This document shows positions 12,688 to 38,620 of a DNA stretch of 40,894 nt, one piece after another. The position numbers were made by a program, and so were the translations under genes. The number at the start of each line of letters is the position of its first letter. Positions within the stretch are counted from its first letter, which is position 1. Under the pieces are notes generated by a model, which worked only from the letters and a program-made list of their open reading frames with translations, was not told where the DNA came from and made no database searches. Origin of the DNA: Clostridia bacterium (GTDB lineage Bacteria; Bacillota; Clostridia; Oscillospirales; Acutalibacteraceae); NCBI GenBank assembly GCA_017382015.1, contig JAFOBC010000042.1, forward strand, positions 1-40,894. The letters run 5' to 3'.

Positions 12688-13323
12688 TTAATTTTCAAGA
12701 AAATCCAAAGCTTTTTTGTACTTTTCAAGACGAGCAAAATCCGCTTCACCGGGATTTTTGATTCTTGAGATATCCATATTGTGTTTGATATCAGCCATTT
12801 TTACATGCCATGCGTTGCTATCCATCTTTACTGTTTTCAGATAATCCTCATATGAAACACCGTCAGTCTTTGTGAGTATACGTATAGAATTTACGATTCT
12901 GTATGTAAAACCCATTTCAATAAGCTCTTCCGGCGTAACATCAGTATCCTCAATCACATCATGCAAATACGCAACAATTTTGTGTTCGGTGCTCTCAAGC
13001 GAAGCCGCTACTGCCTGCGGATGCAAAAAATAAGGGTTGCCGCCTTTATCATATTGCCCCTCATGAGATACTGCCGAAACCTTAATCGCCAAACCAAGGA
13101 GACGGTTTAACAAAAGCCGTCTTTCCTCGAGTAATACCATAGCTTCATCTTCGGATATAATAACATATTGATCAAACTTAACATCATCAGGCCACATATA
13201 ACGCGCCATTATGCCGCTGCGCACCCATTTTTCTGCACCAAAATGATATACATATCGTTTTCCGTCATCATCTTTGACAACCTCATTCGCATTAAGCTTA
13301 TCCGTTAACTTATAGTAAATCAT
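12688..13323 (-). CDS. HD-domain small alarmone hydrolase (SpoT/Mesh1-type), probable immunity/antitoxin to the upstream RSH toxin
   Basis: 211 aa. NPYFLHPQAVAASLESTEHKIVAYLHDVIEDTDVTPEELIEMGF matches the H..HD..ED(T) hydrolase motifs of RelA/SpoT HD domains. An extra N-terminal domain of about 85 aa is present. Its start overlaps the upstream stop (ATGA at 13320-13323). Confidence 0.75.
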   Translation of the reverse strand: MIYYKLTDKLNANEVVKDDDGKRYVYHFGAEKWVRSGIMARYMWPDDVKFDQYVIISEDEAMVLLEERRLLLNRLLGLAIKVSAVSHEGQYDKGGNPYFLHPQAVAASLESTEHKIVAYLHDVIEDTDVTPEELIEMGFTYRIVNSIRILTKTDGVSYEDYLKTVKMDSNAWHVKMADIKHNMDISRIKNPGEADFARLEKYKKALDFLEN

Positions 13324-14249
13324 CTGTTTCGCACCTTCTCTATACCTTTCGGTCTTTCCATCTTTGATGAAAGTTCTGCCATTTTTTCGTCAAGCTCTAT
13401 TGCTTTGGGATTATCATCTGCCATTGTTCGACGTTGCTCGTACAGCGCATGTAATTCTCCGTTTTTTAAATCAAAGCTCTCTTGCGTATGAAACTGAACC
13501 TCAAAAGATTGCCCTTCAGGATTGGTGAGAACCGCATTTATACCACGGTAAGTTGCATTCTCGTTATCCCATGTGTTTTTCACTCTGTCTACTGTATACC
13601 CTCTTGACTCAAAATCACTAAGACAAGCATTGGTTCCGTCTGCAAGTTCATCCGGAGAATAAACCGCCGTATAGCGTATAACATCATTCATATCCTGAAC
13701 ATCAACATGCTCGCCGGAACCACGGTCATACATTTTTTCATATGTAGAAGACGGTGTTTTCACCCTATATTCAAGACCCTGAAGTTCCGCCATATTTTTT
13801 TCTGCTACATTTTTAACATCATTGGTAATTGCCGGCTCCCTTTCAATGATATCAAAGTAGGAGTTCTTTTCATCGGCGGACATTTTACCAAGCGCTTCAA
13901 CTTGTTTGGCTTTTGATTCATCTGACATTTTATCAAAGCACGCCGGCAATTCATGTTTCGAAGAAATCTCACTTTCTTTTGCAGTTCCTCCCTCAACAGC
14001 ACCGTCAGTTTTTTCTCCATACGAAAAAGCTTTCTGACGCTCAGCATTTTGAGCAGGATTCTCACGAGAAGAACTCATCAATTCAGTTTCATATTCACTT
14101 GCGCCGCCTCTGAAATCGCACAATTCCCGGCTAGCTTCATTCGAACAAAGCTCGGTATTGGCGTCCGAAGTTTCAACAGCTTCGCTTCCGCTTTCTCCGC
14201 CCGCATCAACACTTGTTGATGAAGAATCGCCGTCTCGTAAATCAGACAT
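13320..14249 (-). CDS. RelA/SpoT-homologue synthetase-fold toxin (toxSAS-like) with acidic N-terminal leader
   Basis: 309 aa. Synthetase-fold motifs appear in order: YRVKTPSSTYEK (R.K..S...K), NDVIRYTAV (D..G.R-like), TYRGINAVL (GYR..H-like), FEVQFHTQES (E.Q..T) and HALYE. The first ~120 aa are acidic and low-complexity. The SD is GAGGTGG. Confidence 0.7.
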   Translation of the reverse strand: MSDLRDGDSSSTSVDAGGESGSEAVETSDANTELCSNEASRELCDFRGGASEYETELMSSSRENPAQNAERQKAFSYGEKTDGAVEGGTAKESEISSKHELPACFDKMSDESKAKQVEALGKMSADEKNSYFDIIEREPAITNDVKNVAEKNMAELQGLEYRVKTPSSTYEKMYDRGSGEHVDVQDMNDVIRYTAVYSPDELADGTNACLSDFESRGYTVDRVKNTWDNENATYRGINAVLTNPEGQSFEVQFHTQESFDLKNGELHALYEQRRTMADDNPKAIELDEKMAELSSKMERPKGIEKVRNR

Positions 14250-14268
14250 AATATAACCACCTCAAAAT

Positions 14269-14673
14269 TTATGCTCCCAAAAAGCGTTGTAAAACGTAAC
14301 CGAATAAGTCGATATTCAAGGGGACAATATCATTATTACCTGCAACAAACCTATAAACAAGGTCATTTGAATCAACCAGATAAAAATCGCCGTCGCCCTG
14401 ATCTTCAACTGCAATTAAATTTCTTGTTTTATCAAAACTGCTATGAAGCCACAGGGTTTTGACAACCATATCGGAATTAACACCTTGACCATTATTTATA
14501 CCAAACAGCTCTATATGTTTATATCCCAAATAACCATATTCCAAAACGTACTTTTTCAGCTGTTCGCCAAAAGTTACCCCTGTTTTGGACTCCATCTCAG
14601 AAATCCTGTCTGCAGATATTCTGTTAAACGTGTAATCAACGTCATTGTTTTTTACAAACTCAATTAACATCAT
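14269..14673 (-). CDS. SMI1/KNR4 (SUKH-1) family immunity protein
   Basis: 134 aa. It has the typical SUKH layout: I.E.E...GV.F.EQLKKYVLEYGYLGY...ELFGIN, then a later acidic block with DGDFYLVD. It starts 6 nt after the nuclease-toxin gene, behind an AAGGAGG SD. Confidence 0.7.
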   Translation of the reverse strand: MMLIEFVKNNDVDYTFNRISADRISEMESKTGVTFGEQLKKYVLEYGYLGYKHIELFGINNGQGVNSDMVVKTLWLHSSFDKTRNLIAVEDQGDGDFYLVDSNDLVYRFVAGNNDIVPLNIDLFGYVLQRFLGA

Positions 14674-14679
14674 TACAAA

Positions 14680-15393
14680 TCAACCTCCTTTGGCTCTTGA
14701 TTTCCAGTGTTCAGGTCTTTCAACATTGTTATAATGATTACTCTTCTGCGAGTCGTTTCTCCAGCTTTCACCATCTTTTGTATGCAAGGATGAATAACAG
14801 TTTCCGTGTTCGCTGTCCGCCGTAAGTTCGGCTAAAGGAGAATCATAATCTTGACCTATATGATGCAATTCTATTCTTTCACCGGTTTTAGCATCATACG
14901 GAGCGCGGCCTTTTTCCATCAATTCTCTGTTTGTCATACCGGATTTAGGATCAACATAATCCATATCAATTTTATCTCTCACAAGGCAAACTCTGCCATC
15001 GACATTTTCTTCCCTCAGGTTTGCTTTCTGATAAACTTCAAGCTCTTCAACCGATGAAATATGTTCATTTACTTCATCTGAATAGTTACTTTTTTCGTTT
15101 ATTTCCGCTCTTATTTCCTCAGGGCTTTTTTCACCCTCCACAGAGGGCTGTTCGGCAGCCTCTTCGTTTGTTGAATCGGGTTTTGCAGTTTCTTTGGTAT
15201 TCTGTTTTTCGCCTTCAACCAACTCTGCATTTTCTGATTTTTCCGCTCCGGCAACCAACTCTTGATTGGCTTCTTCGCCTTCTTTGCCGCTATAGAGCTC
15301 AGTTGCAGCATCATTAGCTTCAACAGACGATTCGTTTGCCGAATCCGAAGAACCGCTGCTTACCGATACATCTGAACCGTCTTCTGAACACAT
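14680..15393 (-). CDS. HNH/EndoVII-fold nuclease toxin of the LHH type with acidic N-terminal leader
   Basis: 237 aa. The C-terminal ~90 aa contain GERIELHHIGQDYDSPLAELTADSEHGN...LH, with the LHH codons at 14860-14868. The N-terminal ~120 aa are S/E-rich. The SD is AAGGAGG. Confidence 0.7.
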   Translation of the reverse strand: MCSEDGSDVSVSSGSSDSANESSVEANDAATELYSGKEGEEANQELVAGAEKSENAELVEGEKQNTKETAKPDSTNEEAAEQPSVEGEKSPEEIRAEINEKSNYSDEVNEHISSVEELEVYQKANLREENVDGRVCLVRDKIDMDYVDPKSGMTNRELMEKGRAPYDAKTGERIELHHIGQDYDSPLAELTADSEHGNCYSSLHTKDGESWRNDSQKSNHYNNVERPEHWKSRAKGG

Positions 15394-15407
15394 AACAACA
15401 ATCCTCC

Positions 15408-18098
15408 TTACTTTCCGATAATTTCATTAATATAAATGCGCTCAATTTCACTGAAAAGCGCTTTGTCTTTCTTCCTGATATCCCATTGCTCAATCAAACA
15501 ATTCATTAAACAGTTTTTGCTGTTCAACACATTGGATGATCTGAGTGACGGATTAGAATTTATAAAATTCTCCAAGCTTGTATTGACATCACATATTTTA
15601 CATGTCTGAGTTACCAAGGGGTTTATGCTTCTGGAAAACCTTATAAATAGACCGGGGTCGGCCAATAAATTCAGAACATCTTCAGGTATACACTCACAAA
15701 AGCACTTGCAAGCTCTGCAAATAGCGCTCCTTTTATTTGTTAATACCTCATATCCCTTATCGCTTCTTATATCAATACAATTGTGTTGCGTTGCACAAAT
15801 AACATCCTGCCTGGAAATATATTTTCTGCTGTCGAGCATAAAACTGTTGGCATAGACGGGCTTGACCAGCTTAGGTCTGTTATCGCCTTCGGAATAAACC
15901 GCCGCAACACCTTGCTTGAGCGTGGAGAGTGCCGCTATCTGTTCATCTGTCATGTTCATAGCGCCACCCATCAATGTTCTCTCATCCTCAGCTACTGTTC
16001 GATGGACGATCTTTAAATTAGTGTTTTTTATCAGATCCGGTGCCAATTTCGACGGAATCTGATCGGCAACAACAAAGCCCTGTCCTTTGCTTCGCATCTC
16101 CGCAAGCATATTGCAGAAAAACTCAACAGCCGCACCCCTTGGGTCAGCATTTTCACCTGTTCCGCTTTGGACATTTTTCAAAAGCCTGTGTGCTTCTTCT
16201 ATGAGTAAAAGATGTCTGATTTCAAGCTGGCAATCCTCTTGTTGACGTCTGTACTCCAAAACCTTGATGAGCAAAAGACTGATGATAAATGCTTTTACAT
16301 CATCATCGCCAATATCCTCAATTTCAATTATAGTATTATTTTCAAGCAAATGCTCCATCGGGAAAGATTTTTTCACATTAAGCGCAGAGCCTTTGCTACC
16401 TATACGCAATGAATTTATGCGTGCCTGTAACGAGCCAATCAGGTCGTTACGCATTTTTGAATCGTAACCCATCTCCGTAACAATTTGCGGTATTTTGAAG
16501 TACAAATCCTCAATTGTCGGGTAAACTTCAACACCGTTACGATTCACATTATTGTCTATATCCCAGCCGTAATCCTCATAAATGCTGTATATGGCTTTTT
16601 CAAGCACATACGGCATAGGTGTATACATAATAAAGCTCGCTTTAAATGCAGCATAAACAAAATCTATATGAGTCTGAATAGAAACCGATTTCACGTTTCC
16701 GTTAACGTCCTTGTATGAAACGCGTTCGAAAGGATTGATGCATAACCTGCTGGCATTAGGTTCACTGGAACCCACGCTGTATATACGCAAATCATCAAAT
16801 CCGAGTTTATAAAGCTCCCAATATTCTTTTTTGGCGGGTTCTATAATTAAAAACGGCTTTCTTTTTGAGTTGTTTTTTCCTACGCTGCATATCAAACTCT
16901 TTAAAGTATTTGTCTTACCTGAACCGGTTAATCCAATTACCAGGCAATGCCTGTTAAACTCGTTTATATCAATCAGATATTCATTGTTGGTAGGATTACC
17001 GTTTTCAAGTATATGACCAACAGATAAATCTCCTTGAATTTCTCTGTTAACATCAAAAGCAACATAATCTTTTACACCGAATCCAGCCGTATCAACAACA
17101 GGCGGCGCAGAATACACAGCCAACTCCTTACTGCTCAGCAATGTACCGTAAACCGGATAATCAGACTTACAGAAATTATTATGTGTATACTTTCCGGCAT
17201 CAATCAGTCTGTGATAACAACCAGGCCGATGATAAACCGGATGAACAGGCTCAGGAATTGACTCTTCGCCCAGATAAGCAGACGAAAGCAAACCGCCAAG
17301 AAGTCCGGCATCGTCATTACTGGTAGCTGCAAAATTTATAACCGTACTCCACTCACCAACAGCAATGCTTTCTTCCAACTTTTCAACAAAAGCCTGGATT
17401 TTTTTGTTGTATTGTTCACTATGAAAATAGCTCTTTTTGTATGAAGTGGTTTCTACATTATCACTATCCGTATATGTCACATCGGAAAGCTGACTGCATT
17501 CCGTAGCAAGAGTCAACCACATATGCTGTCTTACTATAGATTCACTCTTGCTGACAGGAGTTGCAAAAATAGAAATTTGCCACTTTTTGTTTTTCATTCC
17601 GCGTACTACTTTCTCAAGTTGATTTGAGAATTTAAAATTTTCAGAACCGGTCGAATTGCCTTTTAAAAATCCGCCATTGCTCCAATTCTGATTGTTTAAT
17701 ACAGTAGCAGAATCAAAAACTGCATCGTTATCAGATTCGTTTCTTGAAAACTGTATCTGAGGAAAAATTCCGGAATATGTATTTTTGATCACTTCAAGAT
17801 ATTGTATCGGGCCACCTATAAACACATCTATTTTATTTCCGTCACAATTAATAACAGTAGATACGTTAATCTTAAGAGAATGTAAACTCACAAAAACTTC
17901 TGTCAGAATATTCCATAACGGTCTTTCTTCTACATCCCATAAATTGCTGATTTCGGTAATTTTTAAATATGCATATGAACCGACAGCATAATCTTCAGAT
18001 ATTCCATCGGTAACTCTGCTTGAATTCATAGCGTCAAGCATTACCACATACCTATCTATAATACGTTTACTTTTCTCCTCGAATTCGATTCTTTTCAT
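15408..18098 (-). CDS. HerA/FtsK-superfamily (DUF87-like) P-loop ATPase with Cys-rich C-terminal region
   Basis: The track ORF runs to 18143. I prefer the ATG at 18098 (MKRIEFEE...), which has GGAG about 10 nt upstream. Walker A GLTGSGKT is at 16911-16934. Walker B HLLLIEEAH, typical of HerA/DUF87, is at 16188-16214, and ADQIPSKL follows. The C-terminus holds CRACKCFCEC...CKIC...CLMNC. Confidence 0.75.
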   Translation of the reverse strand: MKRIEFEEKSKRIIDRYVVMLDAMNSSRVTDGISEDYAVGSYAYLKITEISNLWDVEERPLWNILTEVFVSLHSLKINVSTVINCDGNKIDVFIGGPIQYLEVIKNTYSGIFPQIQFSRNESDNDAVFDSATVLNNQNWSNGGFLKGNSTGSENFKFSNQLEKVVRGMKNKKWQISIFATPVSKSESIVRQHMWLTLATECSQLSDVTYTDSDNVETTSYKKSYFHSEQYNKKIQAFVEKLEESIAVGEWSTVINFAATSNDDAGLLGGLLSSAYLGEESIPEPVHPVYHRPGCYHRLIDAGKYTHNNFCKSDYPVYGTLLSSKELAVYSAPPVVDTAGFGVKDYVAFDVNREIQGDLSVGHILENGNPTNNEYLIDINEFNRHCLVIGLTGSGKTNTLKSLICSVGKNNSKRKPFLIIEPAKKEYWELYKLGFDDLRIYSVGSSEPNASRLCINPFERVSYKDVNGNVKSVSIQTHIDFVYAAFKASFIMYTPMPYVLEKAIYSIYEDYGWDIDNNVNRNGVEVYPTIEDLYFKIPQIVTEMGYDSKMRNDLIGSLQARINSLRIGSKGSALNVKKSFPMEHLLENNTIIEIEDIGDDDVKAFIISLLLIKVLEYRRQQEDCQLEIRHLLLIEEAHRLLKNVQSGTGENADPRGAAVEFFCNMLAEMRSKGQGFVVADQIPSKLAPDLIKNTNLKIVHRTVAEDERTLMGGAMNMTDEQIAALSTLKQGVAAVYSEGDNRPKLVKPVYANSFMLDSRKYISRQDVICATQHNCIDIRSDKGYEVLTNKRSAICRACKCFCECIPEDVLNLLADPGLFIRFSRSINPLVTQTCKICDVNTSLENFINSNPSLRSSNVLNSKNCLMNCLIEQWDIRKKDKALFSEIERIYINEIIGK

Positions 18099-18184
18099 AA
18101 TAAAGATTACTCCGTTTCTTGTATATACCGCAAACAATATCACCGCTAAAAAGCGGATTTCAAAGCGACTGATATTTTCAGTAA

Positions 18185-19300
18185 TTAAAACAAGCTTTTA
18201 ATCATAAAAAATATCGCTACTATGATTATAACTATTGGCACTATTGAATATATCCATCCTGAAAGGTAAGAACCAAAACCCGCAAACGAACCGAACGCGC
18301 TGACAAACAGAAACGCCAAAGCTAACGATACCAATAAAATGCCAAATATCGGAAAACTGCGTTTCTTTTTTGAAAACATTCTTGACAGTATACCTATAGT
18401 TGTCAACTGTGTCAACAAATACAAAACCGACAGAACAGCCGCTGTGATTAGCCAGACTGTACAAAACTCTTTTATGCTTGCAAAAAAGTTACCGTCTGAT
18501 GTTGCCGCAACAAAGCAAACGAAAAAGAACATAAGCGCTGACAGAATACCGTATACAATCGCTTTTACAGAGCGCTGAAAGCCAACCTTGCTTTCGTACC
18601 CATTGCTGATTACATGGATTTCATCAGCCATCAAAACGCCATTTTTACGATATTTACCATGAACTTCTACTTCAGCATTATCAACAAGCTGCAAACCTCC
18701 GGATATAGTGCCATGAATATTTACAGGAATATCGTTATACTGCTGATAACCTAATTCATCTTCATCGTGTTCAACGCGGACAACAAATCTGTGCAAAACA
18801 TCCTCGAGCCTTTGTCTGTATACAATGGCATCGTAAATTTTCTGCGGTAAAAATCTTCTGTATTCACCATCTTCTTTACCGGAACTGGTGTACTGCGAAA
18901 CTTTACCGCGAATTGTTCGCTGATTAAGAAAAATTCCATTATTCACAGTTGACTGTGTGCTTGTGCTTTTTGTAGTTAAAAGCTGGGGACTGACCGTGTC
19001 AGGAAAGCTCGGTTTGAGATTACTGTTGTTGCCGCTTTCATCCGAAGGAGATCCCCAGGGATCAAATTTAGGCTGCATATCGGTTTGATTACTTTTGTCA
19101 AAACCACTACTGCCTGCGCCCGTCGGAAAATCGCCGAACGCAAAATCGTTTTTTTCGCCAGGCAACATGCATCTTCCAAAAAGATCGCCTTTTTCTACCG
19201 ACTCCACTTGCAAGGCTGCACCGCACACCGGGCAAGCCAATGCGTTTAAATCTTCGGTATATGGTCTTCCCGGACAATTATTACAATATTTAACTATCAT
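18185..19300 (-). CDS. zinc-ribbon membrane protein (N-terminal CxxC..CxxC, central beta-rich domain, 4 C-terminal TM helices)
   Basis: 371 aa. The N-terminus is YCNNCPGRPY...ACPVCGAAL. A low-complexity linker and a soluble domain follow. The hydrophobic C-terminus is IVYGILSALMFFFVCFVAA ... IVPIVIIIVAIFFMI. Confidence 0.65.
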   Translation of the reverse strand: MIVKYCNNCPGRPYTEDLNALACPVCGAALQVESVEKGDLFGRCMLPGEKNDFAFGDFPTGAGSSGFDKSNQTDMQPKFDPWGSPSDESGNNSNLKPSFPDTVSPQLLTTKSTSTQSTVNNGIFLNQRTIRGKVSQYTSSGKEDGEYRRFLPQKIYDAIVYRQRLEDVLHRFVVRVEHDEDELGYQQYNDIPVNIHGTISGGLQLVDNAEVEVHGKYRKNGVLMADEIHVISNGYESKVGFQRSVKAIVYGILSALMFFFVCFVAATSDGNFFASIKEFCTVWLITAAVLSVLYLLTQLTTIGILSRMFSKKKRSFPIFGILLVSLALAFLFVSAFGSFAGFGSYLSGWIYSIVPIVIIIVAIFFMIKSLF

Positions 19301-19345
19301 TTTTACTCTCCGAATATAAGTTGAATTTCTCTTAAAGGTTGGTTA

Positions 19346-20860: not shown

Positions 20861-20949
20861 CGCAGATCTAATCCTTTCGTCAAATAGTTTTAGAGAGTAT
20901 TAATTAAACCATTATTGATAAGCTGATGCTATAAACTTACTATCTATAT

Positions 20950-20980: not shown

Positions 20981-20988
20981 CATTTGAA

Positions 20989-29033: not shown

Positions 29034-29046
29034 TATATTATGTCAG

Positions 29047-29502: not shown

Positions 29503-29511
29503 ACACACTCC

Positions 29512-29985: not shown

Positions 29986-30112
29986 AACCGTCACTCCCTT
30001 CTGTTACGTTAACTACAGTATATGTTATACAAACCCGAAAATCTTCGGGGGATATATATAATTTTGAGAACAACTTAACATCCGCGTGCAGGGCCTCTGC
30101 GCCTTATGATAT

Positions 30113-33100
30113 TCAATCCGCCTCGTCAATAATCTGTGATACGGCTTCATCAAGCTGACAATCCCGACAGATAACCGTCTTAACGCCGTACGCAGCCTCA
30201 CCGTGCTTTATAACTGCCTCATTGTCCGCATCACGATAACTGTCACCGACAAGAGCAATCAGCACAAGCTTCTTATTGATGCCAAAGCGATTTCCGACAT
30301 CTCTGAGCTTGGCATAAAAATCCGTTATAAGACGGTTACAGCATTTCACCTCAATCAACTGCATGGAAAAGTCTTTGATTGCAACTATATCAAAACCTTG
30401 TGTTGCAACGTACTCATCACCGTTATTCTTATGGCATTGAACCTCTACGGAAATACCCGCATCATCGCAGAAGCTGCTTTCCTTTATTTTATAGTACGTG
30501 TAGAGCTCGGCAAGCTGACCTTCTGTGGATAACAAGGATTTAACTGATTCGGATGCAAAGCAAAAATCAAAGCAGATTCCGCTCAATGGCGCACCGTTGC
30601 CGATACTGTTGTACGGGGTTTCGCTCATATCAACAATGTATCCTTTTTCGATAAGGTAGCTGAAAATATTCCGTACGTTGCCGTAAAGTTCTCTTTGTTT
30701 ATCATCAGCTTCACCTGCGGTTGTGCCGAGGGCATTCCACACGCTGATATCAAAATTGAAATTCTCAACAACCAAAGAATCTACGCTTATCTGCACAGAG
30801 TTTTTGATACGGACGGTACGGATTTTCGATTCATCAGCCAACGCATAAATGTTTTTTGACAGAAGTCTGACAAACGCATTTTTAACCGCAACATCTGACG
30901 TAAACTTAACGCGAAACATTGTTGAATTATGGTCTTTAATCTCCCAGCTGTCAACCATACCTATTGCTTCATCAGATAAGAACGCGAGTATTTTTTTGAC
31001 AGAAGCACGGCAGAAACCGGGCAGAAAATGCTCTGTCACAGCAGTTGCTCTTACCGCTGATTTGTTTTCATTTATCAAAAGGCTGAAAAGCTTATCGCTT
31101 ACATTAACCTTATCTCCGATAGCTTTGCAAAGCGTATTCCAGCTCTCTGTCATACGGTATTGGCAGCAACAGCTATCCCAGATATCATAATAATCGTTAT
31201 GAAGCTCCGGCTCACAATAAACGCCGGGGCGGTCGTGCGCTATAAACGCATCTTCGACATTAAGGTGAATGTCAAAGGGAATATCGTTATACCGACAGTA
31301 ACCGTTTGTGTTCATCGCACAAAACTGCATTGCAACCGAATCAAACTTATATGACGGAATATCAACTTCTTTCAGCGCAGAAGAAACCGCATCGCTGATT
31401 TCGTCCGACCCAAGCTCAACAGCCGAAAACCTCAAAGGAGAATCCTGATTGGCGATAAAGGTGTTTGCTATCTTCTGTGACAGATCTGAGCGCTCATTCA
31501 GCTCAACAAAATCGACTCGGTCTATACGCGGCGAAACCGCACCGAGCGCCGCTTTTGCCTGTGCGCAAGCATCATTGCTGAGCGGTTTATCAGACATGTC
31601 TACGTAAAAAATAAAGTTTATGCCGGTTTGAAGGTTACGGTTATCCATCAGCTTTGTAATGTGCGACATAACCTTCAGCATCGACGGCGTTACAATATCT
31701 GACCCACCGTCAGCACAAACAATATATGTAACCTTTTCAGGGTTTATAACAAGGGCAGATGCCACGTTATCAAACCATCTATTCTCTGTTTCGTCAACTA
31801 TCAAGGGCATACATATTCTCTGCCGTGCCGTATAATTCAGAATAAACGGCAAAGAAGCCAGAATACGGTAGTCAACCTCTTTGTAGTCTGTGTAACTGTA
31901 TGCTTCTTTTACAGGTGCGAACAGCTCACAGATTTCGTTAAACTTTTTCTTTATATCTTCCTTGCCGGGCGGATTGATTGCCTCAAGCTTATTCAGGAAG
32001 ACAGTTTCACAATGGCTGAGATTTTTTATTACGTTGCTTCTTTTTGTTTTACGCGTCTTAACTGCGTTCATTGCAACCATACACGAATTGAACGCAACCA
32101 ACAGCCCGTGGTTTGCCCCTATGTATTTCCTTAAAATTTCAGCTTCTTTTTTCAGCGCATGCATATCAAATGCCACGGCCTTCGCCATATAATGCCGATG
32201 AAGCTGTACGGACATCCTGTCGAGAGGGTCGAGATTTCCGAGGGCGCTGTCATCCGGATAATCCCAGGCCGATAATGATTCTGTCCACTCTTCGCCGCCC
32301 AATGCCCATTCGTTGCCGCCGGGAACGATACGCACATGCTTGCGCTCAGCCTTGTTTTTGCTGCCGCTGTTCAGATGCTTGAACTCTTCCTCAGGCAACA
32401 ACCTGTAAGATGAGCAAATCATATTTACGTTCCAGCGTGCGTGCTCATACATCGTAAGCTCATCAAGACATTTTTGCTGCTCTTCTGTTCTTGCCGCTGC
32501 GCTGATGCCCGTTTTTTCGCGGTAAGCACAGGAAAGCTCAAGCATTTTCTTCCGTCTGTCAGCAACAGTTTCAGCTCTGACCTCTTCAAGGCTCAGACCG
32601 ATACTGTGAAGCTTATATTTCAAAGAAATCGCCATGGACATTGATGCCGTGTAGTTATACGGATTCATAAATGCTTCGCGCGCACAATTCATATCAAGGC
32701 TCAGATTGTTCTTTCGCAGAATGTAGCAGTTAAAGCCTGCATCGTGCAGGAAATTACAATCCCTGTGTCGGGCAATAAGCGACTGTGTTATGTGCACGGG
32801 GTTTATTACATCCCCGACAGCTTTTTTGTTTCGGGCGTTTTCTTGGCCCATATTCTTATAAGTAACAAAGTTGACTACGGACTTCTTGCTTTTAAGCAGA
32901 CCCGTCTTTGTTAAATCGCTTGCTATTCTCCTGTTCAGCCTCTCATCAGACAAGCTGACAAACACATAGCCGAATTTTTCATCCGAACCAAGAGTTTCTT
33001 TAAGAATGGCTATGTTATCTTCGGAATCCGCGGCAAGCTCCGACCTTATCTGCACAAAACTCACTCTGCCGTAATCACAGTATACCGAGCTGCCGTATTT

Positions 33101-34654
33101 TCCGAGGTAGGCAGGTTTCTCCCCGTTTACCCAAAAATAATTCCTGATCTCGGGGCGCGATTCAAGATAGCGCCGCTCATCGCTTTCCTTATCCTTTGAT
33201 GCAACAACAACGTTCAGGTAGCAGCCCTTTATCTGGCTCATTTCAAGCGCAATATCCAGAAACTTCTGACCAAAAACACCGGCACCCAGAACAAGAACGT
33301 TCAGCTTGCCATCCTGCACGTAATCATACAGAGGACGGTCATACAGCAAGCATTGCATTGCCGAAATTGCGCCGCCGATTTTTTCAATTTCTTTGCCGTA
33401 GTATTCCTCTTTGTCGGCCATTTTTACTATAGCCTTTTTGCCTGTAGCGGCCTCTGCCTTGCCGATTGCAATTATATTTTTTACTTTTTCATCAACCGCT
33501 TCAATGGCATCGATAAATTCATCAACACTTTCAAAGTTGGTTAAGCCATGTGCATAGTCACGCGGACATCTGGCAAGAGAACGCTTCAGAATGTTGACGA
33601 TACCGTCCGCAATTTCAACACCGGACGTATATTCGGAATATTCAAACAACCAGGAATGGCGCAAACGGCCCGTTATTTCGCCGAAGTTTTTCACCTCATA
33701 GAGACCCCTGCCATCCTTGCCTAAAACAATTGAATTATACAGCGTTGCACCGAGAGAAAATATATCGGTTTTACAGCCGACTTTCATAGTCGCTATATCA
33801 CCCGTGAGCTCGGGAGCCGCAAAATATTTTGTGCCCATAAACCTGATTTCGCCGGCACCGGCACGGGAATGCAGGCTGTTAATATCAAACATTGCAACAG
33901 AAACGTTATCGCCGCTCTTATCGCCAAGGTCTCTTACACCGAAGTTGGACGGCTTGATATCAAGGTGAAGCATAAACTTCTCATGAATAATCAGAATGCC
34001 CTTGGCAAGCGCCCTGACAGCCTGAAGGATAAAGTGAAGCTCATTTGCAAGGTATAAGTTAAGGTTGCCGCCGGGTGAATCTATTTCGTGGGCAACACGC
34101 TTGTACATATCGTTCAGGTGATCTTCAAAGCTTACAAGACTTCTGTCGCCCGAAGTCCAGATATAAACAGTATGGTTGCTGTCATCATCCTTTGAAATGC
34201 CTTGGTAAATCTCAAAATTCTGAAAATAGCTGTCGCTGCAGGAGCTGTTTTCAATCAGCTCCAGAACCTTATAATGAGATTCGCAAAACTCTTTTCTGGC
34301 TTCTTCAAATTTTGCTTTTGTTGATTCCCCGGAATAAAGCTGGTTTGCAACAAGGCGTTCATCTATATCGTAACGCTTGAGATGAAACGCGTGCGCGCCC
34401 TTATCTCTCGAGCCGTCATCCATATCCATAGGATAAAACTCTTTGAGTATACCCTGCTTGCGCATACCGTTTGCAAGAATTTTTTCGGCGCTGTAACAGA
34501 TACAGCTGCCGCCGGCATTTACTACTCCTTTAATGAGAAAATCCACGCCGACGCGGTCTCTGTCCGACGTTACATACTGAAGCCTTATGCTTCCGGAAAG
34601 AGGGATTCTTCCCTGCATTCTTTTTTTAAGTTTTTCACCCTCTAAAAAGCCCAA
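30113..34654 (-). CDS. 1513-aa multidomain protein: N-terminal Ser/Thr protein kinase-like domain, Rossmann-like GxGxxG module, long middle region, C-terminal PD-(D/E)xK (Card1/NERD-like) nuclease-fold domain
   Basis: Kinase motifs: G-loop-like VNAGGSCICY, the lysine in GILKEF, the catalytic loop HLDIKPSN (33944-33967), VAMFDINS in place of DFG, and YFAAPEL. A Rossmann-like LNVLVLGAGVFGQKF lies at aa 451-465. The C-terminus has GFDIVAIKDFSMQLIEVKC (D..E.K at 30344-30391). The start is TTG, 3 nt after the PP2C stop. Confidence 0.7.
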   Translation of the reverse strand: MGFLEGEKLKKRMQGRIPLSGSIRLQYVTSDRDRVGVDFLIKGVVNAGGSCICYSAEKILANGMRKQGILKEFYPMDMDDGSRDKGAHAFHLKRYDIDERLVANQLYSGESTKAKFEEARKEFCESHYKVLELIENSSCSDSYFQNFEIYQGISKDDDSNHTVYIWTSGDRSLVSFEDHLNDMYKRVAHEIDSPGGNLNLYLANELHFILQAVRALAKGILIIHEKFMLHLDIKPSNFGVRDLGDKSGDNVSVAMFDINSLHSRAGAGEIRFMGTKYFAAPELTGDIATMKVGCKTDIFSLGATLYNSIVLGKDGRGLYEVKNFGEITGRLRHSWLFEYSEYTSGVEIADGIVNILKRSLARCPRDYAHGLTNFESVDEFIDAIEAVDEKVKNIIAIGKAEAATGKKAIVKMADKEEYYGKEIEKIGGAISAMQCLLYDRPLYDYVQDGKLNVLVLGAGVFGQKFLDIALEMSQIKGCYLNVVVASKDKESDERRYLESRPEIRNYFWVNGEKPAYLGKYGSSVYCDYGRVSFVQIRSELAADSEDNIAILKETLGSDEKFGYVFVSLSDERLNRRIASDLTKTGLLKSKKSVVNFVTYKNMGQENARNKKAVGDVINPVHITQSLIARHRDCNFLHDAGFNCYILRKNNLSLDMNCAREAFMNPYNYTASMSMAISLKYKLHSIGLSLEEVRAETVADRRKKMLELSCAYREKTGISAAARTEEQQKCLDELTMYEHARWNVNMICSSYRLLPEEEFKHLNSGSKNKAERKHVRIVPGGNEWALGGEEWTESLSAWDYPDDSALGNLDPLDRMSVQLHRHYMAKAVAFDMHALKKEAEILRKYIGANHGLLVAFNSCMVAMNAVKTRKTKRSNVIKNLSHCETVFLNKLEAINPPGKEDIKKKFNEICELFAPVKEAYSYTDYKEVDYRILASLPFILNYTARQRICMPLIVDETENRWFDNVASALVINPEKVTYIVCADGGSDIVTPSMLKVMSHITKLMDNRNLQTGINFIFYVDMSDKPLSNDACAQAKAALGAVSPRIDRVDFVELNERSDLSQKIANTFIANQDSPLRFSAVELGSDEISDAVSSALKEVDIPSYKFDSVAMQFCAMNTNGYCRYNDIPFDIHLNVEDAFIAHDRPGVYCEPELHNDYYDIWDSCCCQYRMTESWNTLCKAIGDKVNVSDKLFSLLINENKSAVRATAVTEHFLPGFCRASVKKILAFLSDEAIGMVDSWEIKDHNSTMFRVKFTSDVAVKNAFVRLLSKNIYALADESKIRTVRIKNSVQISVDSLVVENFNFDISVWNALGTTAGEADDKQRELYGNVRNIFSYLIEKGYIVDMSETPYNSIGNGAPLSGICFDFCFASESVKSLLSTEGQLAELYTYYKIKESSFCDDAGISVEVQCHKNNGDEYVATQGFDIVAIKDFSMQLIEVKCCNRLITDFYAKLRDVGNRFGINKKLVLIALVGDSYRDADNEAVIKHGEAAYGVKTVICRDCQLDEAVSQIIDEAD

Positions 34655-34657
34655 CTC

Positions 34658-35356
34658 TTATACCCCTTTCGGTATATCCATCATAATGACACTGCAATCA
34701 TCCGCACAGCGCTGATTTTCAAGATAACCTGCAATATCGTTTTCTTTCACTGCCTGCAGCATCTCAAACGACAGCGAGCCGCTGTCACCCGAATAAAAGG
34801 TTTTCCATGCGCCGTCTGTCGCCAGCAAAAATTTTACGTCGCTTTTTTGGCTGATTTTGATATCAACGACATCCGCGACATTTTTTGTGGTTGTTGTGTA
34901 TGTCATGCCGTCGTATGAAACACGCGGCGCACCGCACAGAGTCATACTGCCTTGCTCAACCAGATATATAAGGCTGTCGCCAAGAACAAAGGTCATAACC
35001 TCGCCGCTGAGTTTATTATAGCACACAAAGCTCAGGGTTGATGCATAAGACTCGAGACGGTTATTATATATCGCTGCTTCTTCTGCCAGCTTTTGGCGAA
35101 TATATGAAGACAAAAGATTTGTCACTTTCCCCTCTGATGCCGAAAACATATACTCTGTTTCATCAAGCATCACTCTGCTTGCAGATTCGCAGGCAATTTC
35201 GGCGCCTCTTTTTCCGTTTTCGCAGGCAGAAACGCCGTCAGCAATCGCACAAATCTTTGCCGTATTACTCTCTGCCTGCCAAACCACATCCTGGCTCTGC
35301 AAGCCGTTTAACAAATGATAACTTCCGGTCTTCCGGTATACAGGTACGTTATTCAA
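34658..35356 (-). CDS. PP2C-family Ser/Thr protein phosphatase
   Basis: 232 aa. CAIADGVSACENGKRGAEIA (the DG.G metal-binding block), LLATDGAW and C-terminal DDCSVIMMD are the canonical PP2C motifs. The start is TTG, 3 nt after the upstream stop. Confidence 0.75.
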   Translation of the reverse strand: MNNVPVYRKTGSYHLLNGLQSQDVVWQAESNTAKICAIADGVSACENGKRGAEIACESASRVMLDETEYMFSASEGKVTNLLSSYIRQKLAEEAAIYNNRLESYASTLSFVCYNKLSGEVMTFVLGDSLIYLVEQGSMTLCGAPRVSYDGMTYTTTTKNVADVVDIKISQKSDVKFLLATDGAWKTFYSGDSGSLSFEMLQAVKENDIAGYLENQRCADDCSVIMMDIPKGV

Positions 35357-35359
35357 GAA

Positions 35360-38300
35360 TCACTTTTCTCCTATCTCCCGCTCTGTTCTTTTAAATTGGT
35401 CATAAAGCTTTTGGTATTGGTCTACAAAGCTGTCTACAGGGTCTGTATACAGCGGCAGGAAATTATCGCGGTAAGCAATATAGATTACATAAATATCAAA
35501 AATATTCTTGCTGTTTACCGGCGCATAGCCTGCCTCTTCAAGCATTTTATCTGCTCCCTTGTAGCTGATTGTTTCCGACATCGGCAGCTCAGAGCATTCA
35601 TCGTACGAATAATCCATATCATCCAACTCAACGTTGAAAATATCGCCGTTGACAAAAACGTCGTAAAACTTTTCAAAGTTTCCGAAGTAGGTTTCTTCGT
35701 CAGCTGACCTTTTCAGCCAGTTGATTAAAACAAACTGATAAAAACAAACCGCCATAACCGTGCTTCTGCTTACGTTTTTAAAGCGGATTTCTTCACCCAT
35801 TTCAACAGTAAGCCTTTTCTGGATTCTGTTCAGCAGCAGCTTTAACGAAGCATAGCTTTCCGTGCACAGATCGTTTACCCTTGAAAAGCTTGCCTCAAAC
35901 CTTTCCTTGGGTGTATCAAACTGCCTGCCCTTCAACCTCATAAACTTTGCTTTCAGCTGCTCTTTTTCCTTCGCAGTCTGTCCGAAATACTCAAAGCAAT
36001 CTCTGCAGTTTTCAAAAACAATTTTTCCCAGACCGTCTTCCGAATCGAGATTTGTTTCGAAAGGCTCAAAATATTCTTTGCAGTAAGGGAAAATGTCTGT
36101 GCTGTGCTTGGGGCAGTTGCGGCATCTGCGGCTTGTCAGGTAGTGGTATTCATAAAAGAAATCTTCCAGCTCATACGACATCAAAGCAAGCTCCAGTTTA
36201 TCTGTGGTTACGTCAGACAGTTCTTTTACCTTCACAACCTTGTACAGCAAGCTGTTGACAACTGCCTCCTGCTCCCTGATAACACGCGCAGCCGTACGCT
36301 GCTCATCATTTATCTGCATTATTCCGGAATCGTTTGATTTGCAGGGATAGTTTTTTGTCAGATAACTCTTAAACTTTTCTTCCGTGAGAGACATTGTGCC
36401 TGCAAAGCCCTCTTTGTATCGCTTTGTTATATAATCCTGCTCATCCCTGATGCTGCCGGAAAAATCATCCTGCGTTTTTCCGTATTTTTTACAGTAGGCT
36501 ATAATTTCATACGCTTTTTCAAGCCTTTGCTTCGGAGTCAGCTCCGGCTGCTCCAGACACCAGAGGAATGTAACCTCGGCAAAATTTTTATAGTTGATTC
36601 CGTAACCGTCAACCGACGTGTCTTCGCTGTCTCCCAAGCCTGCAACCAACGGCAGACGATTGACTATATTGTCTGTATAATAATCCCAGAAAAGGTTTTT
36701 TTCGATATCGCAGATTCTCAACGGGTTACCGTTTTCGACACTCCTGATATCAAAGGCAACGGCAAAAATATACAGATATTCTCTTGTTTTACCCTGCGAG
36801 GAAAACTCGGCATTTGCCAGAGAATCCGCAATCTCAAGCAGGGTATAATCGTTAAACTCACGGGCGCAAGAGGAATACAGCACTTCACGGTTATCTTTAA
36901 AATCTTCTCCGCCCTTTTTGCTGGCTGTGTTATATCTTGATCGTACCCGCTTATACAGCCTCTGTGTATATTTTTCTTTATCTTCTACAAAACGCTCTGC
37001 GTATGCAATAAATTGCTTGAGGGAATTATTGTCATTTTTCAGCACTTTACCCGTTGCGTGAAGAATTTTGTCAACAACCGAGTCATTGACAATATCAGAG
37101 AAAAACTTTGCACCGGGCACCCAGGAAATCTTAACACCGGGACAAACATCCTGTAGAAGTGCAATATTTTCGGACGTGACAGGAATAGCCTGAGCGTAAT
37201 ACTTGGCAAGCACCATCAGCCTGTATATATCGGGGTAGTTAACGTAGGTAATCGGCTCGCCCAGTGCTCTTTCCGTCTGCTCCTCATACGCCTTGCCTAT
37301 CTTGGCTGCATAATTGATTTTTTCCGCCTTCTTTGCCTCGGTGCTTTCACACAGATCAAACAGGACCTTTTCAAGCGAGTTTACCAGCTTGATATATTTT
37401 TCTTTATCTTCAGAGCTTTCAAAATCTGCATATTTTATCTTCTCCGGAGAAAAAACACTGCTCAGTTTGCATTTTTGGCCTTTGTTTTTCTCCACTTTCA
37501 AAAAAGCTTCGGGCTGCAGATTTTTAATCAAGTCTTCGTTTGATTTTTTTCTCAGCACCTGAATTTTATCTCCGAAAAACTTAAGCAGAGTATACAGACG
37601 TAACGAATAAGAAAAATCGGTATACAGGTAATAGCCTCTGCTGTGTCTTTGTCGCAGCATCTCGTTCAACTCTTCCACCGCGTCAATACTCTCAAGCGAA
37701 GAATAGTTTCTGATATGCTTAATGCCTATCTCATAATACGGCAACGAATCTGCAAAGCAATCAGAAAGCAGCACCGCCGTACCGTTAACCGCCGCCTCAG
37801 AAAGAACATCGGCTCTCATAACACGGCAAAGGCGCTCACAAATCTCTTTTGTTACATAAGTCATCGGCGCTTTGATTCTGATAGTACCGTGCAACTTTGT
37901 CAGCTCACCTATATATTTGTCGCCGAACAAAACGCCCTCTTTATCATCGCTTTTTATATCCTGCGGCTGTGAAATCAGGTCAAATATACTGTCGTCAATT
38001 TTATCAACGTCACCGTTGTATTTTTCAGCAACCACATCTTCAAGCTCTTCGCACCTGATGCCTTTACAGTCATAACCAAACTGATTTATAAACTGCTTTA
38101 AAATAAGCACCCTTGTTGTCAGACCCGCGATACTCTCATCCGTCACGTTGAAATTATAGCGAAGAAGGCGCCTTACCAGACGTGTCATATGGTCTGCTGA
38201 CGATTTGTATTCACCGTAAATTTCGTTAAGCTTCTTCAGAAATTCAGCATCAATAGTACGGTCGATTTCGTCAATGCTTCTGAGCATATATGCGTAGTCT

Positions 38301-38620
38301 TCGTATGTATCCAAAGCGTCTTCAATCTCGTCAATACCGTCAGAGCTGAAATCCGTAATCAGCCCCTTAGCGCGGCGCTCACCTGCAGCATTTTCAATAT
38401 AATGTTTTTCTGTATATTGCGGAATGGTGCCCAACAGGACAAGCAACTCATCCTGCTGATCGGAAAGCTTGGTCAGATGCTCACCGCTGTGTGCTGTGCT
38501 TCGCATTTTTTCAATGATTCGCAAAGCTTCTCCTCTGGCAATTATACAAAAAAACTCATCCAGTTTTGCCTTGGTATCTCTTGCTTGATTTGTAAAATCT
38601 GTCGGCATAAAGGTTGACAT
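35360..38620 (-). CDS. 1086-aa protein of unknown function, first gene of the kinase/PP2C block
   Basis: It is a long uninterrupted ORF with an AAGGGG SD 6 nt upstream. It looks predominantly helical and charged, and I recognise no enzymatic motif. One Cys cluster, RRCRNCPKHSTDIFPYCKEY...ENCRDCFEY (about 36000-36130), looks like a zinc ribbon. Confidence 0.7.
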   Translation of the reverse strand: MSTFMPTDFTNQARDTKAKLDEFFCIIARGEALRIIEKMRSTAHSGEHLTKLSDQQDELLVLLGTIPQYTEKHYIENAAGERRAKGLITDFSSDGIDEIEDALDTYEDYAYMLRSIDEIDRTIDAEFLKKLNEIYGEYKSSADHMTRLVRRLLRYNFNVTDESIAGLTTRVLILKQFINQFGYDCKGIRCEELEDVVAEKYNGDVDKIDDSIFDLISQPQDIKSDDKEGVLFGDKYIGELTKLHGTIRIKAPMTYVTKEICERLCRVMRADVLSEAAVNGTAVLLSDCFADSLPYYEIGIKHIRNYSSLESIDAVEELNEMLRQRHSRGYYLYTDFSYSLRLYTLLKFFGDKIQVLRKKSNEDLIKNLQPEAFLKVEKNKGQKCKLSSVFSPEKIKYADFESSEDKEKYIKLVNSLEKVLFDLCESTEAKKAEKINYAAKIGKAYEEQTERALGEPITYVNYPDIYRLMVLAKYYAQAIPVTSENIALLQDVCPGVKISWVPGAKFFSDIVNDSVVDKILHATGKVLKNDNNSLKQFIAYAERFVEDKEKYTQRLYKRVRSRYNTASKKGGEDFKDNREVLYSSCAREFNDYTLLEIADSLANAEFSSQGKTREYLYIFAVAFDIRSVENGNPLRICDIEKNLFWDYYTDNIVNRLPLVAGLGDSEDTSVDGYGINYKNFAEVTFLWCLEQPELTPKQRLEKAYEIIAYCKKYGKTQDDFSGSIRDEQDYITKRYKEGFAGTMSLTEEKFKSYLTKNYPCKSNDSGIMQINDEQRTAARVIREQEAVVNSLLYKVVKVKELSDVTTDKLELALMSYELEDFFYEYHYLTSRRCRNCPKHSTDIFPYCKEYFEPFETNLDSEDGLGKIVFENCRDCFEYFGQTAKEKEQLKAKFMRLKGRQFDTPKERFEASFSRVNDLCTESYASLKLLLNRIQKRLTVEMGEEIRFKNVSRSTVMAVCFYQFVLINWLKRSADEETYFGNFEKFYDVFVNGDIFNVELDDMDYSYDECSELPMSETISYKGADKMLEEAGYAPVNSKNIFDIYVIYIAYRDNFLPLYTDPVDSFVDQYQKLYDQFKRTEREIGEK

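Follow-up and report, generated by a model that had tools for sequence, protein, structure and literature searches.

We analyse here a 40,894-nt stretch of DNA from a Clostridia bacterium of the Acutalibacteraceae (contig JAFOBC010000042.1, assembly GCA_017382015.1), referred to at its full length as the window, in which 15 consecutive, co-oriented open reading frames (ORFs), g1 to g15, occupy the minus strand between positions 12688 and 38620. An earlier sequence-only reading had tentatively assigned these genes, which include a tubulin-like GTPase, two vWA membrane proteins, a HerA-like ATPase and two toxin-immunity pairs, to a single integrated machine of 26 kb. The window was compared with 79 genome loci seeded by the tubulin-like protein, with 13 metagenome loci seeded by the HerA protein and with the contigs of individual homologues (L numbers denote these loci). 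While the genes are indeed of the conflict type, the locus consists of two adjacent conflict modules that are independently inherited. Module B (g7-g15, 12688-27560, with its own promoter-like site) contains the tubulin, vWA, HerA and toxin genes; module A (27728-39970) contains a Tudor protein, the 1086-aa g1, a PP2C phosphatase, a kinase fused to a restriction endonuclease (REase)-like domain, a PGDYG protein and a membrane zincin, and merely adjoins module B as a separate, rare phospho-signalling/nuclease module.

The 15 ORFs lie at the coordinates first read, and their spacing needed correction: the gaps within blocks run from -4 to 128 nt, not from 3 to 90 nt, two of them exceeding 90 nt (118 nt between g3 and g4, 128 nt between g8 and g9), and the largest intergenic gaps are those of g5-g6 (212 nt) and g6-g7 (317 nt). 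A Shine-Dalgarno-like sequence, previously attributed to every gene, precedes 14 of the 15, g7 being the exception. The motifs read by eye were located where stated (GGTGSG, two DxSxS, Walker A/B, HLDIKPSN, HExxH, LHH, HD and the C-terminal D..ExK of g3), and nearly all the domain calls were recovered by Pfam profile hidden Markov models (HMMs), with those of g14 (RelA_SpoT), g15 (HD_4) and g6 (SprT-like) falling just under the cut-offs. Both reported hairpins are present and differ in kind: the one at 28990-29029 (minus strand) is a strong intrinsic terminator (18-bp stem and T tail) that closes the g1-g5 transcription unit, and the one at 20950-20980, in the g8-g9 interval, is a perfect palindrome of 14 bp that lacks a U-tract on the coding strand and may serve in RNA processing or stability. 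The promoter-like site of module B (27533-27560, minus strand; TTGTAT, 16 nt, and the extended -10 element tgcTATAAT) lies in the AT-rich g6-g7 gap.

The tubulin-like GTPase g8 (1254 aa; 20989..24753, minus strand, as for all genes below unless stated otherwise) belongs to the FtsZl1 family and matches Pfam Tubulin_2 (PF13809) with an E-value of 8e-47 and 160.6 bits (cut-off 27), its residues 38-401 spanning profile positions 1-355 of 356. An N-terminal FtsZ-like fold is followed by about 850 aa of helical and alpha/beta region; the motif SGGTGSG, which corresponds to the tubulin T4-loop signature GGGTG(S/T)G, lies at residues 180-186, and the T1-loop glycines G43, G44 and G46 are, like G181-G186, invariant in 31 homologues, at identities down to 17%. 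The T6-H7 elements have been described as hard to identify in FtsZl1 (Makarova & Koonin 2010, PMC2875224). In an AlphaFold2 (AF2) model of g8 (pLDDT 83.8), the top 50 Foldseek neighbours in the PDB are all FtsZ, TubZ, CetZ, PhuZ or tubulin (probability 1.00, with TM-scores (TMt) of 0.25-0.48 over ~266-400 columns), so that the fold, as modelled, is a genuine though divergent tubulin fold. A sequence search of the PDB found no solved structure related to the tubulin profile, no relatives were detected for the long helices and alpha/beta domains of the C-terminal region, and a plasmid search with g8 returned just two distant matches.

The two vWA proteins flank g8. The first, g7 (24780..27410; Pfam VWA_2, 4e-13), is an 876-aa type-I membrane protein with a predicted Sec-type signal peptide, an extracellular vWA domain with its metal-ion-dependent adhesion site (MIDAS; DxSxS at residue 45), about 300 aa of beta-rich sequence, a transmembrane segment (TM) at 556-574 and a cytoplasmic part of ~300 aa. 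The second, g9 (504 aa; 19346..20860; Pfam VWA, 4e-8), is polytopic, with a K-rich N-terminus, three TMs, an extracellular MIDAS vWA (DxSxS at 125), two clear TMs and a possible third, and a disordered tail, which is cytoplasmic only if this third post-vWA TM (the tentative sixth of the protein) is real. The extracytoplasmic position proposed earlier for the vWA domains is therefore also what is predicted here for both proteins, from the signal peptide and single TM in g7 and from the three TMs before and two or three after the domain in g9. The tails of g7 and g9 are rich in NPxG/NPF-like repeats (NPxG/NPFG in g9), which may be docking motifs for a cytoplasmic partner. A 48-nt tandem duplication inside g7 (25342-25437) encodes NPMAGTSANSTPFGDV twice in the cytoplasmic tail.

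Behind g9 lies g10 (371 aa; 18185..19300), without a Pfam match, which opens with a CxxC..CxxC zinc ribbon, continues through a disordered linker into a beta-rich domain and ends in four TMs (Zn-ribbon/4TM protein). It is followed by g11 (15408..18098; DUF87/HerA, 1e-12), a soluble HerA/VirB4-like P-loop ATPase of the FtsK-HerA superfamily, which most likely starts at M16 and then counts 896 aa. This protein comprises a 330-aa N-terminal alpha/beta domain, a single P-loop domain and a Cys-rich helical C-terminus, with neither a TM nor an FHA domain; it carries the motifs GLTGSGKT and LLLIEE, and its Walker A/B residues are invariant in 24 homologues. The AF2 model of the g11 family (pLDDT 84.8), for which database homologues were used, has as Foldseek neighbours HerA (4d2i, 3e-14), VirB4 (4ag6, TMt 0.75 on the ATPase core) and SIR2-HerA, and is about equally close to archaeal HerA, to defence HerA and to the type IV secretion ATPase VirB4, EccC being matched only with E = 0.07.

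Homologues of g10 and g11 also occur together elsewhere. In L087-L095 (e.g. L094:1613-12782) there is a paralogous operon without tubulin or vWA genes, which encodes a ZnR-FHA protein, a radical-SAM-like Fer4_12 protein, a ClpX-like AAA_2 ATPase, a PP2C, a Ser/Thr kinase, two membrane proteins (one of them g10-like) and a HerA protein 40% identical to g11, with no toxins of the kind described below behind it. The g10-like protein ahead of HerA was detected in L093-L095.

A two-round HMM search gave a census of tubulin-containing loci (n=89), with 59 loci carrying a DO-GTPase and GAP1 (GTPase type), 14 (13 and the window) carrying g10 and HerA without GTPase or GAP1 (HerA type), one carrying both (L052) and 16 that are too short; HMMs built from the GTPases of L030 and L052 found no DO-GTPase in the HerA-type loci. 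In all HerA-type tubulin loci g10 is co-conserved as the constant partner of HerA. The gene order of module B, namely vWA (~850 aa), Tubulin_2 (~1260 aa), vWA (~480 aa), g10 (~365 aa), HerA (~890 aa), an HNH-fold toxin and SUKH, is repeated in 13 Clostridia loci besides the window, so that the tubulin-like gene is syntenic with both vWA genes, the HerA ATPase and the LHH/SUKH pair, as the earlier reading would require for more than a fortuitous adjacency; g7 itself is syntenic in 12 of the 13, and vWA genes stand beside the tubulin gene in most GTPase-type loci as well. The nearest relatives are Ruminococcus, Faecalibacterium and Oscillospiraceae metagenome-assembled genomes (MAGs) from gut and rumen. 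Because the census splits GTPase/GAP1 loci from g10/HerA loci, the HerA type looks like a displacement variant, in which the GTPase pair would have been replaced by the Zn-ribbon/4TM protein, the HerA-type ATPase and toxin-immunity pairs.

Some individual loci deserve mention. In the Paenibacillus locus L030, which was checked as an example of the GTPase type, the order is VWA, Tubulin_2, an 815-aa protein, VWA, a 262-aa protein, DO-GTPase2 and GAP1-N2/GAP1-M. The sole locus with both gene sets (L052:7765-21179) has a HerA homologue behind vWA, Tubulin_2, a 610-aa and a 203-aa protein, DO-GTPase and GAP1-M, and may be an evolutionary intermediate between the two types. A second tubulin gene is present in some HerA-type loci, complete in L005 (1094 aa; 6643-13783) and as a 129-aa fragment in L002 (9329-13843), which recalls the two-tubulin arrangement described for firmicute GTPase-type systems. 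Module B is also a mosaic: L102, L009 and L010 share g10 (50-61% identity) and g11 (61-77%) with the window, their tubulin being 23-25% and their second vWA protein 30-33% identical, and g7 is 60-76% identical between the window and L102 or L009 (L010 is cut before g7). Judging from these identities, exchange seems to affect the gene for the tubulin together with that for the polytopic vWA protein. Defence-type surroundings occur in L002 (1-6238) and L084 (1-7021, 21457-22542), with NACHT-WD40, DUF4062, PP2C and kinase, TIR-LRR, PhD/PIN, a TIR protein and FtsH-like AAA proteases (DUF4062 was reportedly recognised in 2026 as the Swarozyc NADase), the other loci being found in housekeeping contexts.

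Module A starts with two divergent genes. The Tudor protein (377 aa; 38837..39970, plus strand), outside the 12688-38620 range originally considered, carries a C-terminal PcrA/UvrD Tudor domain (Pfam, 1e-5), and its gene also stands beside the g1 homologues of L099 and L100 (1e-144 to 1e-155). The 1086-aa g1 (35360..38620), preceded by a promoter-like site (38783-38755, minus strand; TTGAAA, 17 nt, TATAAT), is matched by nothing in Pfam, NCBIfam, PADLOC or the PDB. Its core domain (residues ~590-780) is widespread and unannotated, with 364 representative relatives in a library-wide HMMER search, 18 of which were scanned against Pfam and NCBIfam and gave nothing; at high identity g1 is rare (5 clusters), and a plasmid search found no match. 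Downstream follow g2 (34658..35356), a PP2C phosphatase (PP2C_2, 4e-24), and g3 (30113..34654), a 1513-aa Ser/Thr kinase (Pkinase, 6e-9) with a long middle region without assignment and a C-terminal PD-(D/E)xK-like motif. In g3 the kinase motif HLDIKPSN is accompanied by a conserved FDIVAIK..IEVKC, the D..ExK being conserved in two homologues and weakly matched by a PADLOC PDDEXK model (0.0047), and a search against PDB sequences returned kinase domains only. A weak terminator-like hairpin (30034-30049) lies upstream of g4 (29512..29994), a small PGDYG-like protein (26.6 bits, cut-off 27) with a homologue in L099, which is followed by the 153-aa ORF g5 (29047..29508), without a homologue in the related module-A loci. 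Finally, g6 (27728..28834) is a membrane protein whose N-terminal part contains at least four TMs and whose C-terminus is a HExxH zincin domain (HEMHH; SprT-like, 23.3 bits, cut-off 25.6). Scans of g1-g8 against NCBIfam gave nothing specific.

Module A recurs in L099, L100 and L101 as g1, PP2C and kinase with the divergent Tudor gene, and in L099, where the contig reaches, it also includes the PGDYG gene and the zincin (g6 homologue, 1e-127), g6 being absent from all tubulin loci. In L099 the surroundings resemble those of an integrative and conjugative element (TraG, ParA, ClpP). Module A gives the impression of a phospho-regulated nuclease module in its own right, which mobile elements may carry.

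The independence of the two modules is most directly seen in the loci that have only one of them. No module A lies near any of the 13 other HerA-type module B loci (examples of module B without A are L083, L001, L003, L085, L102 and L103). The closest relative, L083, is 57-77% identical in amino acids over g7-g13 and has an acetyltransferase gene directly upstream of the first vWA gene, with an aldolase gene before that, and the DNA of the window becomes homologous to that of L083 no more than 26 nt ahead of the g7 ATG. Conversely, L099 has module A without module B, its contig ending soon after module A, so that the absence of B covers only ~2.8 kb downstream; in L100 and L101 the contigs are short and break off inside module A. 

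The alternative, a single sense-and-respond machine made up of the 15 genes, with the tubulin/vWA/HerA layer under the control of the kinase/PP2C layer, has several points in its favour: the genes are all adjacent and in the same orientation, FtsZl1 genes of other phyla often neighbour kinases (Makarova & Koonin 2010), upstream of module B in L002 lie divergent genes for a PP2C, a 707-aa protein and a kinase, and the paralogous g10-like/HerA operon includes FHA, PP2C and kinase genes. The A+B arrangement is also found in a second ENA sample (L104), which is probably the same strain as the window, since its tubulin protein is 100% identical. Against these stand the absence of g1, g2 and g6 homologues from the other 88 tubulin loci of the census, the closest relative included (that is, g1, the PP2C and the zincin are missing from the 13 HerA-type and the 59 GTPase-type loci), the recurrence of module A as a block of its own with its flanking Tudor gene and no module B within reach, and the strong terminator (28990-29029) and separate promoter-like site before g7 that lie between the modules. 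Moreover, L002 is the only HerA-type or GTPase-type locus with a kinase, and neither this kinase nor that of L094 is an orthologue of g3, the similarity being limited to the kinase domain (E = 5e-4 to 3e-6). We consider a single machine highly improbable. The blocks behave as independent units as regards the kinase, PP2C and 1086-aa genes, while the vWA, tubulin, HerA and toxin genes hold together; co-orientation and adjacency of conflict genes, it should be cautioned, need not mean one system.

The separation of the modules also bears on the analogy with TerY-P, which had been drawn from the presence of vWA, PP2C and kinase domains, all within 26 kb. The vWA proteins of the window are large membrane proteins of the other module and match no TerY-P model of PADLOC. 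The conserved companion of the PP2C and kinase genes is g1; as no vWA gene accompanies them, module A is not TerY-P. Nor does any annotated system match the full gene set in PADLOC (15 proteins and the neighbour), where the only matches are at the domain level, to PD-T4-6/MkoA/mad6 for the kinase and to HerA/mad8 for g11.

The end of module B is occupied by two toxin-immunity pairs. The LHH gene g12 (14680..15393) begins 14 nt after g11 and encodes toxin 1, in which an acidic disordered leader of ~130 aa with ELY/ELV motifs precedes an LHH nuclease of the HNH/EndoVII fold (2e-20; ELHH motif); g13 (14269..14673; SUKH_5, 1e-13) is its cytoplasmic immunity protein, without a signal peptide. Toxin 2, g14 (13320..14249), joins an acidic leader of ~70 aa (three ELx in register) to a RelA/SpoT-like nucleotidyltransferase (22.7 bits, cut-off 27), and g15 (12688..13323), whose start overlaps g14 by 4 nt, is an HD-domain protein resembling a small alarmone hydrolase (HD_4, 24.3 bits, cut-off 27.2; HD motif at residue 121) and presumed to be the immunity protein or antidote for g14. 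No signal peptide, LXG, WXG, RHS or PT domain was found in g12 or g14.

The same slots are filled in the other loci, partly with other domains. LHH directly follows HerA in 11 of the 13; in L103 the first toxin is of the WHH/colicin-DNase kind, with a variant leader with EEY motifs, and in L086 a toxin with an unknown domain and a 112-aa ORF stand ahead of the LHH toxin. An immunity-type gene follows the nuclease toxin in every module B locus read that far, mostly SUKH_5 and in L103 SUKH_6/SMI1_KNR4; in L086 the gene in this position encodes a 146-aa protein that was not detected as SUKH, though no Pfam scan of it was made. Most loci have further toxins, some with small downstream genes: TNT in five loci (followed in L003 and L010 by a 78-aa protein), unknown domains in L085 and L086, and in the second slot of L084 an ADP-ribosyl-cyclase-like toxin (a weak Pfam match of 23.5 bits, below the cut-off). 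In L102, whose HerA is 77% identical to that of the window, the LHH toxin shows 47% identity, and BLAST does not detect SUKH.

What unites these toxins is the leader. All those encoded after HerA (LHH, WHH, TNT, RelA/SpoT-like and others) begin with an acidic, Ser/Gly-rich disordered leader, with 25-49 D+E and 0-12 K+R in the first 120 residues, and 19 of 21 leaders contain at least one copy of a repeated (S/T)-E-L-(Y/C/F/M) motif. The 41 copies observed compare with 3.1 +/- 1.7 in composition-preserving shuffles (maximum 10 in 2000), a count to be read with the mutual homology of the leaders in mind, as the copies are not independent events; the motif is nevertheless retained where the sequence around it is lost, and single leaders contain it repeatedly. 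The leader of g14 is in register with those of the TNT and cyclase-like toxins that fill its slot in other loci over ~70 residues, with E33, L34, E42, L43 and E52 invariant, after which the sequences diverge completely; the acidic leaders ahead of the LHH domain and of the unknown domains are related to it. Between the window and L083 the DNA homology stops ~10 codons into g14 (window 14220) and the protein similarity extends through the leader only (residues 7-68), the RelA/SpoT homologue (RSH) and HD genes of the window being replaced by TNT. In all, one homologous leader is joined to at least five different toxin domains, and the array follows the grammar of polymorphic toxins, in which toxin domains are exchanged behind a trafficking module that stays constant and are paired with cognate immunity.

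The tubulin and vWA core of module B is already known, although the earlier reading could name no described defence or secretion system with an FtsZ/tubulin-superfamily GTPase. FtsZl1 operons were described in 2010, linked to MIDAS-intact vWA membrane proteins, kinases, a novel GTPase and OmpA, with a proposed role in membrane remodelling (PMC2875224), and in 2020 a firmicute tubulin with two vWA genes, one of them polytopic with an extracellular vWA, was placed within GAP1-N2/DO-GTPase conflict systems (Kaur et al. 2020, PMC7159879, section 29). With the latter, module B shares a Tubulin_2 protein with a long helical C-terminal region, the two vWA proteins (again one polytopic with an extracellular vWA), a membrane-proximal layout and its occurrence in Firmicutes. 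It differs in that the window has, by Pfam, no DO-GTPase, GAP1 (GAP1-N2/GAP1-M) or FNIII and has one tubulin gene instead of two, and in that module B has the Zn-ribbon/4TM protein, the HerA/VirB4-like ATPase and the leader-tagged toxin-immunity pairs. With the FtsZl1 operons it shares the family of g8 (a GGTGSG FtsZ-like N-terminus and a helical/globular C-terminus) and the MIDAS-intact vWA membrane partners, whereas the other partners listed in 2010 are kinases, a novel GTPase and OmpA, not HerA/DUF87. HerA and DUF87 are absent from the portions searched of the text and supplements of PMC2875224 and PMC7159879; likewise, in the portions searched, nucleases are not mentioned in the text of the former, LHH and SUKH do not occur in the supplements of the latter, and nothing links LHH or SUKH to these operons. 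A description of a tubulin/HerA/toxin system was not found in the literature searched either, and module B is an undescribed variant of the predicted tubulin-like/vWA system.

Two other kinds of system resemble the remaining part of module B. Type VIIb secretion systems (T7SSb) with LXG toxins (EssC/YueA) are also found in Gram-positive bacteria, and they also have an FtsK-HerA-superfamily ATPase beside toxin-immunity arrays (nucleases with SUKH, NADases) and a common N-terminal targeting module on variable C-terminal toxins. However, g11 has a single ATPase domain of the HerA/VirB4 type without TM or FHA, whereas EssC/YueA is a membrane-anchored multi-domain FtsK with FHA; Pfam detects no WXG100 or LXG in the 15 proteins of the locus, to which this search was confined; g10 stands in place of the usual T7SSb membrane components; and where LXG is helical, the leader is disordered and made of acidic ELY repeats. 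The second kind, SIR2-HerA (Nezha) and DUF4297-HerA, likewise encodes a HerA-fold ATPase beside a nuclease and/or NAD-degrading effector, and its structures are among the Foldseek neighbours. These are two-gene systems with a SIR2 or DUF4297 effector, whereas module B is a unit of at least seven genes with LHH, WHH, TNT or RSH effectors that have immunity proteins and leaders, an extra 330-aa N-terminal domain in the ATPase, a membrane partner and the tubulin/vWA genes, and its PADLOC matches are at the domain level only.

Considering all these features, we put the chance slightly below even that module B works as a membrane machine for the export or display of toxins, which it would recognise by their leader. 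In the working that we infer, g7 and g9 would display their MIDAS vWA domains outside the cell and hold their NPxG-repeat tails in the cytoplasm (for g9, depending on the tentative sixth TM), g8, presumably a cytoplasmic polymerising scaffold or switch, would undergo a regulated, GTP-dependent assembly on these tails, and g10 would anchor a hexameric g11 ATPase at the membrane. The substrates would be the toxins encoded downstream (LHH and RelA/SpoT-like here, WHH, TNT and others elsewhere), each made with a cytoplasmic immunity protein. Either the g11 ATPase or the tubulin/vWA scaffold would read the leader, pull the toxin off its immunity protein at the expense of ATP and thread it to or through the membrane, the toxins then being set free or presented on the extracellular vWA as weapons against neighbouring bacteria. 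At a MIDAS site, as in integrin I-domains, a ligand carboxylate completes the coordination of the metal, and acidic side chains are what such sites bind; the extracellular MIDAS vWA could thus contact the wall or a target cell, or hold the acidic leader. By analogy, the tandem toxin-immunity arrays and the one leader on many toxin domains follow a grammar typical of exported toxins; the invariant catalytic residues, the modelled fold similar to HerA and VirB4 and the polytopic membrane partner, always present in the tubulin loci with HerA, are consistent with export, and so is the predicted envelope-spanning layout. More specifically, we propose tentatively that gut and rumen Clostridia have in module B an unrecognised export/toxin-delivery pathway, which would use a leader signal of its own and be aimed at competitors; the HerA ATPase and the common-leader array may represent a new way for gut Firmicutes to deploy toxins.

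Several points weigh against export. The topology of g7 and g9 derives from hydropathy and the positive-inside rule only. No channel-forming component was identified in module B, g10 having only four TMs, and the reader of the leader could be either g11 or the scaffold. The leader type was not found in the literature searched and has no precedent there as a secretion signal. Other such points at the same time favour a different use of the same parts, namely abortive infection or regulated suicide, in which the vWA proteins and the tubulin-like GTPase would sense phage or envelope damage, HerA would strip off the SUKH/HD immunity proteins and the effectors would kill or arrest the cell. The experimentally studied bacterial HerA-clade ATPases are anti-phage and act with nuclease or NADase partners (SIR2-HerA and DUF4297-HerA, for which complexes have been solved), a pattern mirrored by HerA with LHH and TNT, and g11 matches the HerA and mad8 defence models of PADLOC. 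The sister tubulin+vWA+DO-GTPase/GAP1 systems have been read as intracellular conflict systems directed at invaders (Kaur et al. 2020, PMC7159879). Typical interbacterial toxins are hypervariable, whereas the LHH/SUKH pair mostly equals the machinery in conservation; the TNT toxins of L001, L083 and L102 have no recognisable adjacent immunity gene, and some loci lie among NACHT, TIR, DUF4062, PIN/PhD and FtsH-like AAA genes. On the other hand, dedicated SUKH-type immunity and cassette exchange behind a common leader are hallmarks of exported polymorphic toxins and not of known abortive infection effectors, g7-g10 match no system or candidate model of PADLOC, and many loci lie in housekeeping contexts (ATP synthase, aldolase, teichoic-acid genes). 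A scan of viral contigs with the HerA profile gave no matches, which only shows that the system is not phage-borne. Weighing both sides, we regard abortive infection as a serious but rather unlikely explanation.

A further reading would take g7-g11 as a housekeeping machine for membrane remodelling or the envelope, behind which toxin-immunity pairs have lodged as selfish cassettes. The toxin slots are indeed exchangeable, and membrane remodelling or vesicle biogenesis has been inferred from the same tubulin and vWA core (Makarova & Koonin 2010). However, a nuclease-immunity pair follows HerA in every HerA-type locus read through, often at gaps of at most ~20 nt or with overlap, all the toxins carry a system-specific leader that is not seen in the tubulin-less HerA paralogue operons, and the patchy distribution and mosaic recombination of module B are unlike those of housekeeping genes, which makes this reading improbable.

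The FtsZl1/Tubulin_2 branch has had no known function since its description in 2010, and little can be learnt from the known GTPase-type operons, whose outputs are obscure. The HerA-type variant attaches readable outputs to the same core (toxins of known chemistry, immunity proteins and a shared short motif), so that its function is directly testable. If toxins are exported by module B, abundant gut Firmicutes (Oscillospiraceae, Ruminococcus and Faecalibacterium-like MAGs) would have a secretion route and a toxin-targeting signal that are both new, further toxins could be mined by their leaders and the FtsZl1 branch would have its first assigned function. If the effectors instead serve immunity, module B would be the first defence system known to us that combines a cytoskeletal GTPase with immunity-gated effectors.

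The G+C content of the locus region (0.37-0.46) is below that of the left flank (0.46-0.51), and HTH/RepA_N-like genes and a recently transferred repeat-protein gene lie nearby. The latter (7404-8669, plus strand; unit 7071-8711) encodes a 421-aa protein with three tandem repeats of ~130 aa and no Pfam family, and has probably been recently transferred or is mobile, since its DNA is 97.6% identical to the L099 copy (L099:20992-22636) as against 64-69% for the neighbouring genes. A 57-nt hairpin-containing direct repeat stands ahead of it in two copies (6026-6082 and 7151-7207) and flanks the L099 copy on both sides. We had at one point read this gene as a conserved flank shared with L099, and hence module B as an insertion; as the gene is itself mobile, that interpretation was withdrawn. 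Downstream of g15, a 279-aa ORF was rejected as a member of the system, being an unrelated lipoprotein gene with no homologue in the other loci; a 45-nt direct repeat (84% identity; 8667-8711 and 12468-12512) flanks a GH3 glycosidase gene and this lipoprotein gene, its second copy lying just downstream of g15, at the edge of module B. Finally, the right end of the window (40181-40880) is a dense tandem array, with at least 17 copies of an 18-nt unit and two 117-nt units, inside minus-strand ORFs of the hexapeptide-repeat (LbH/LED-like) kind.

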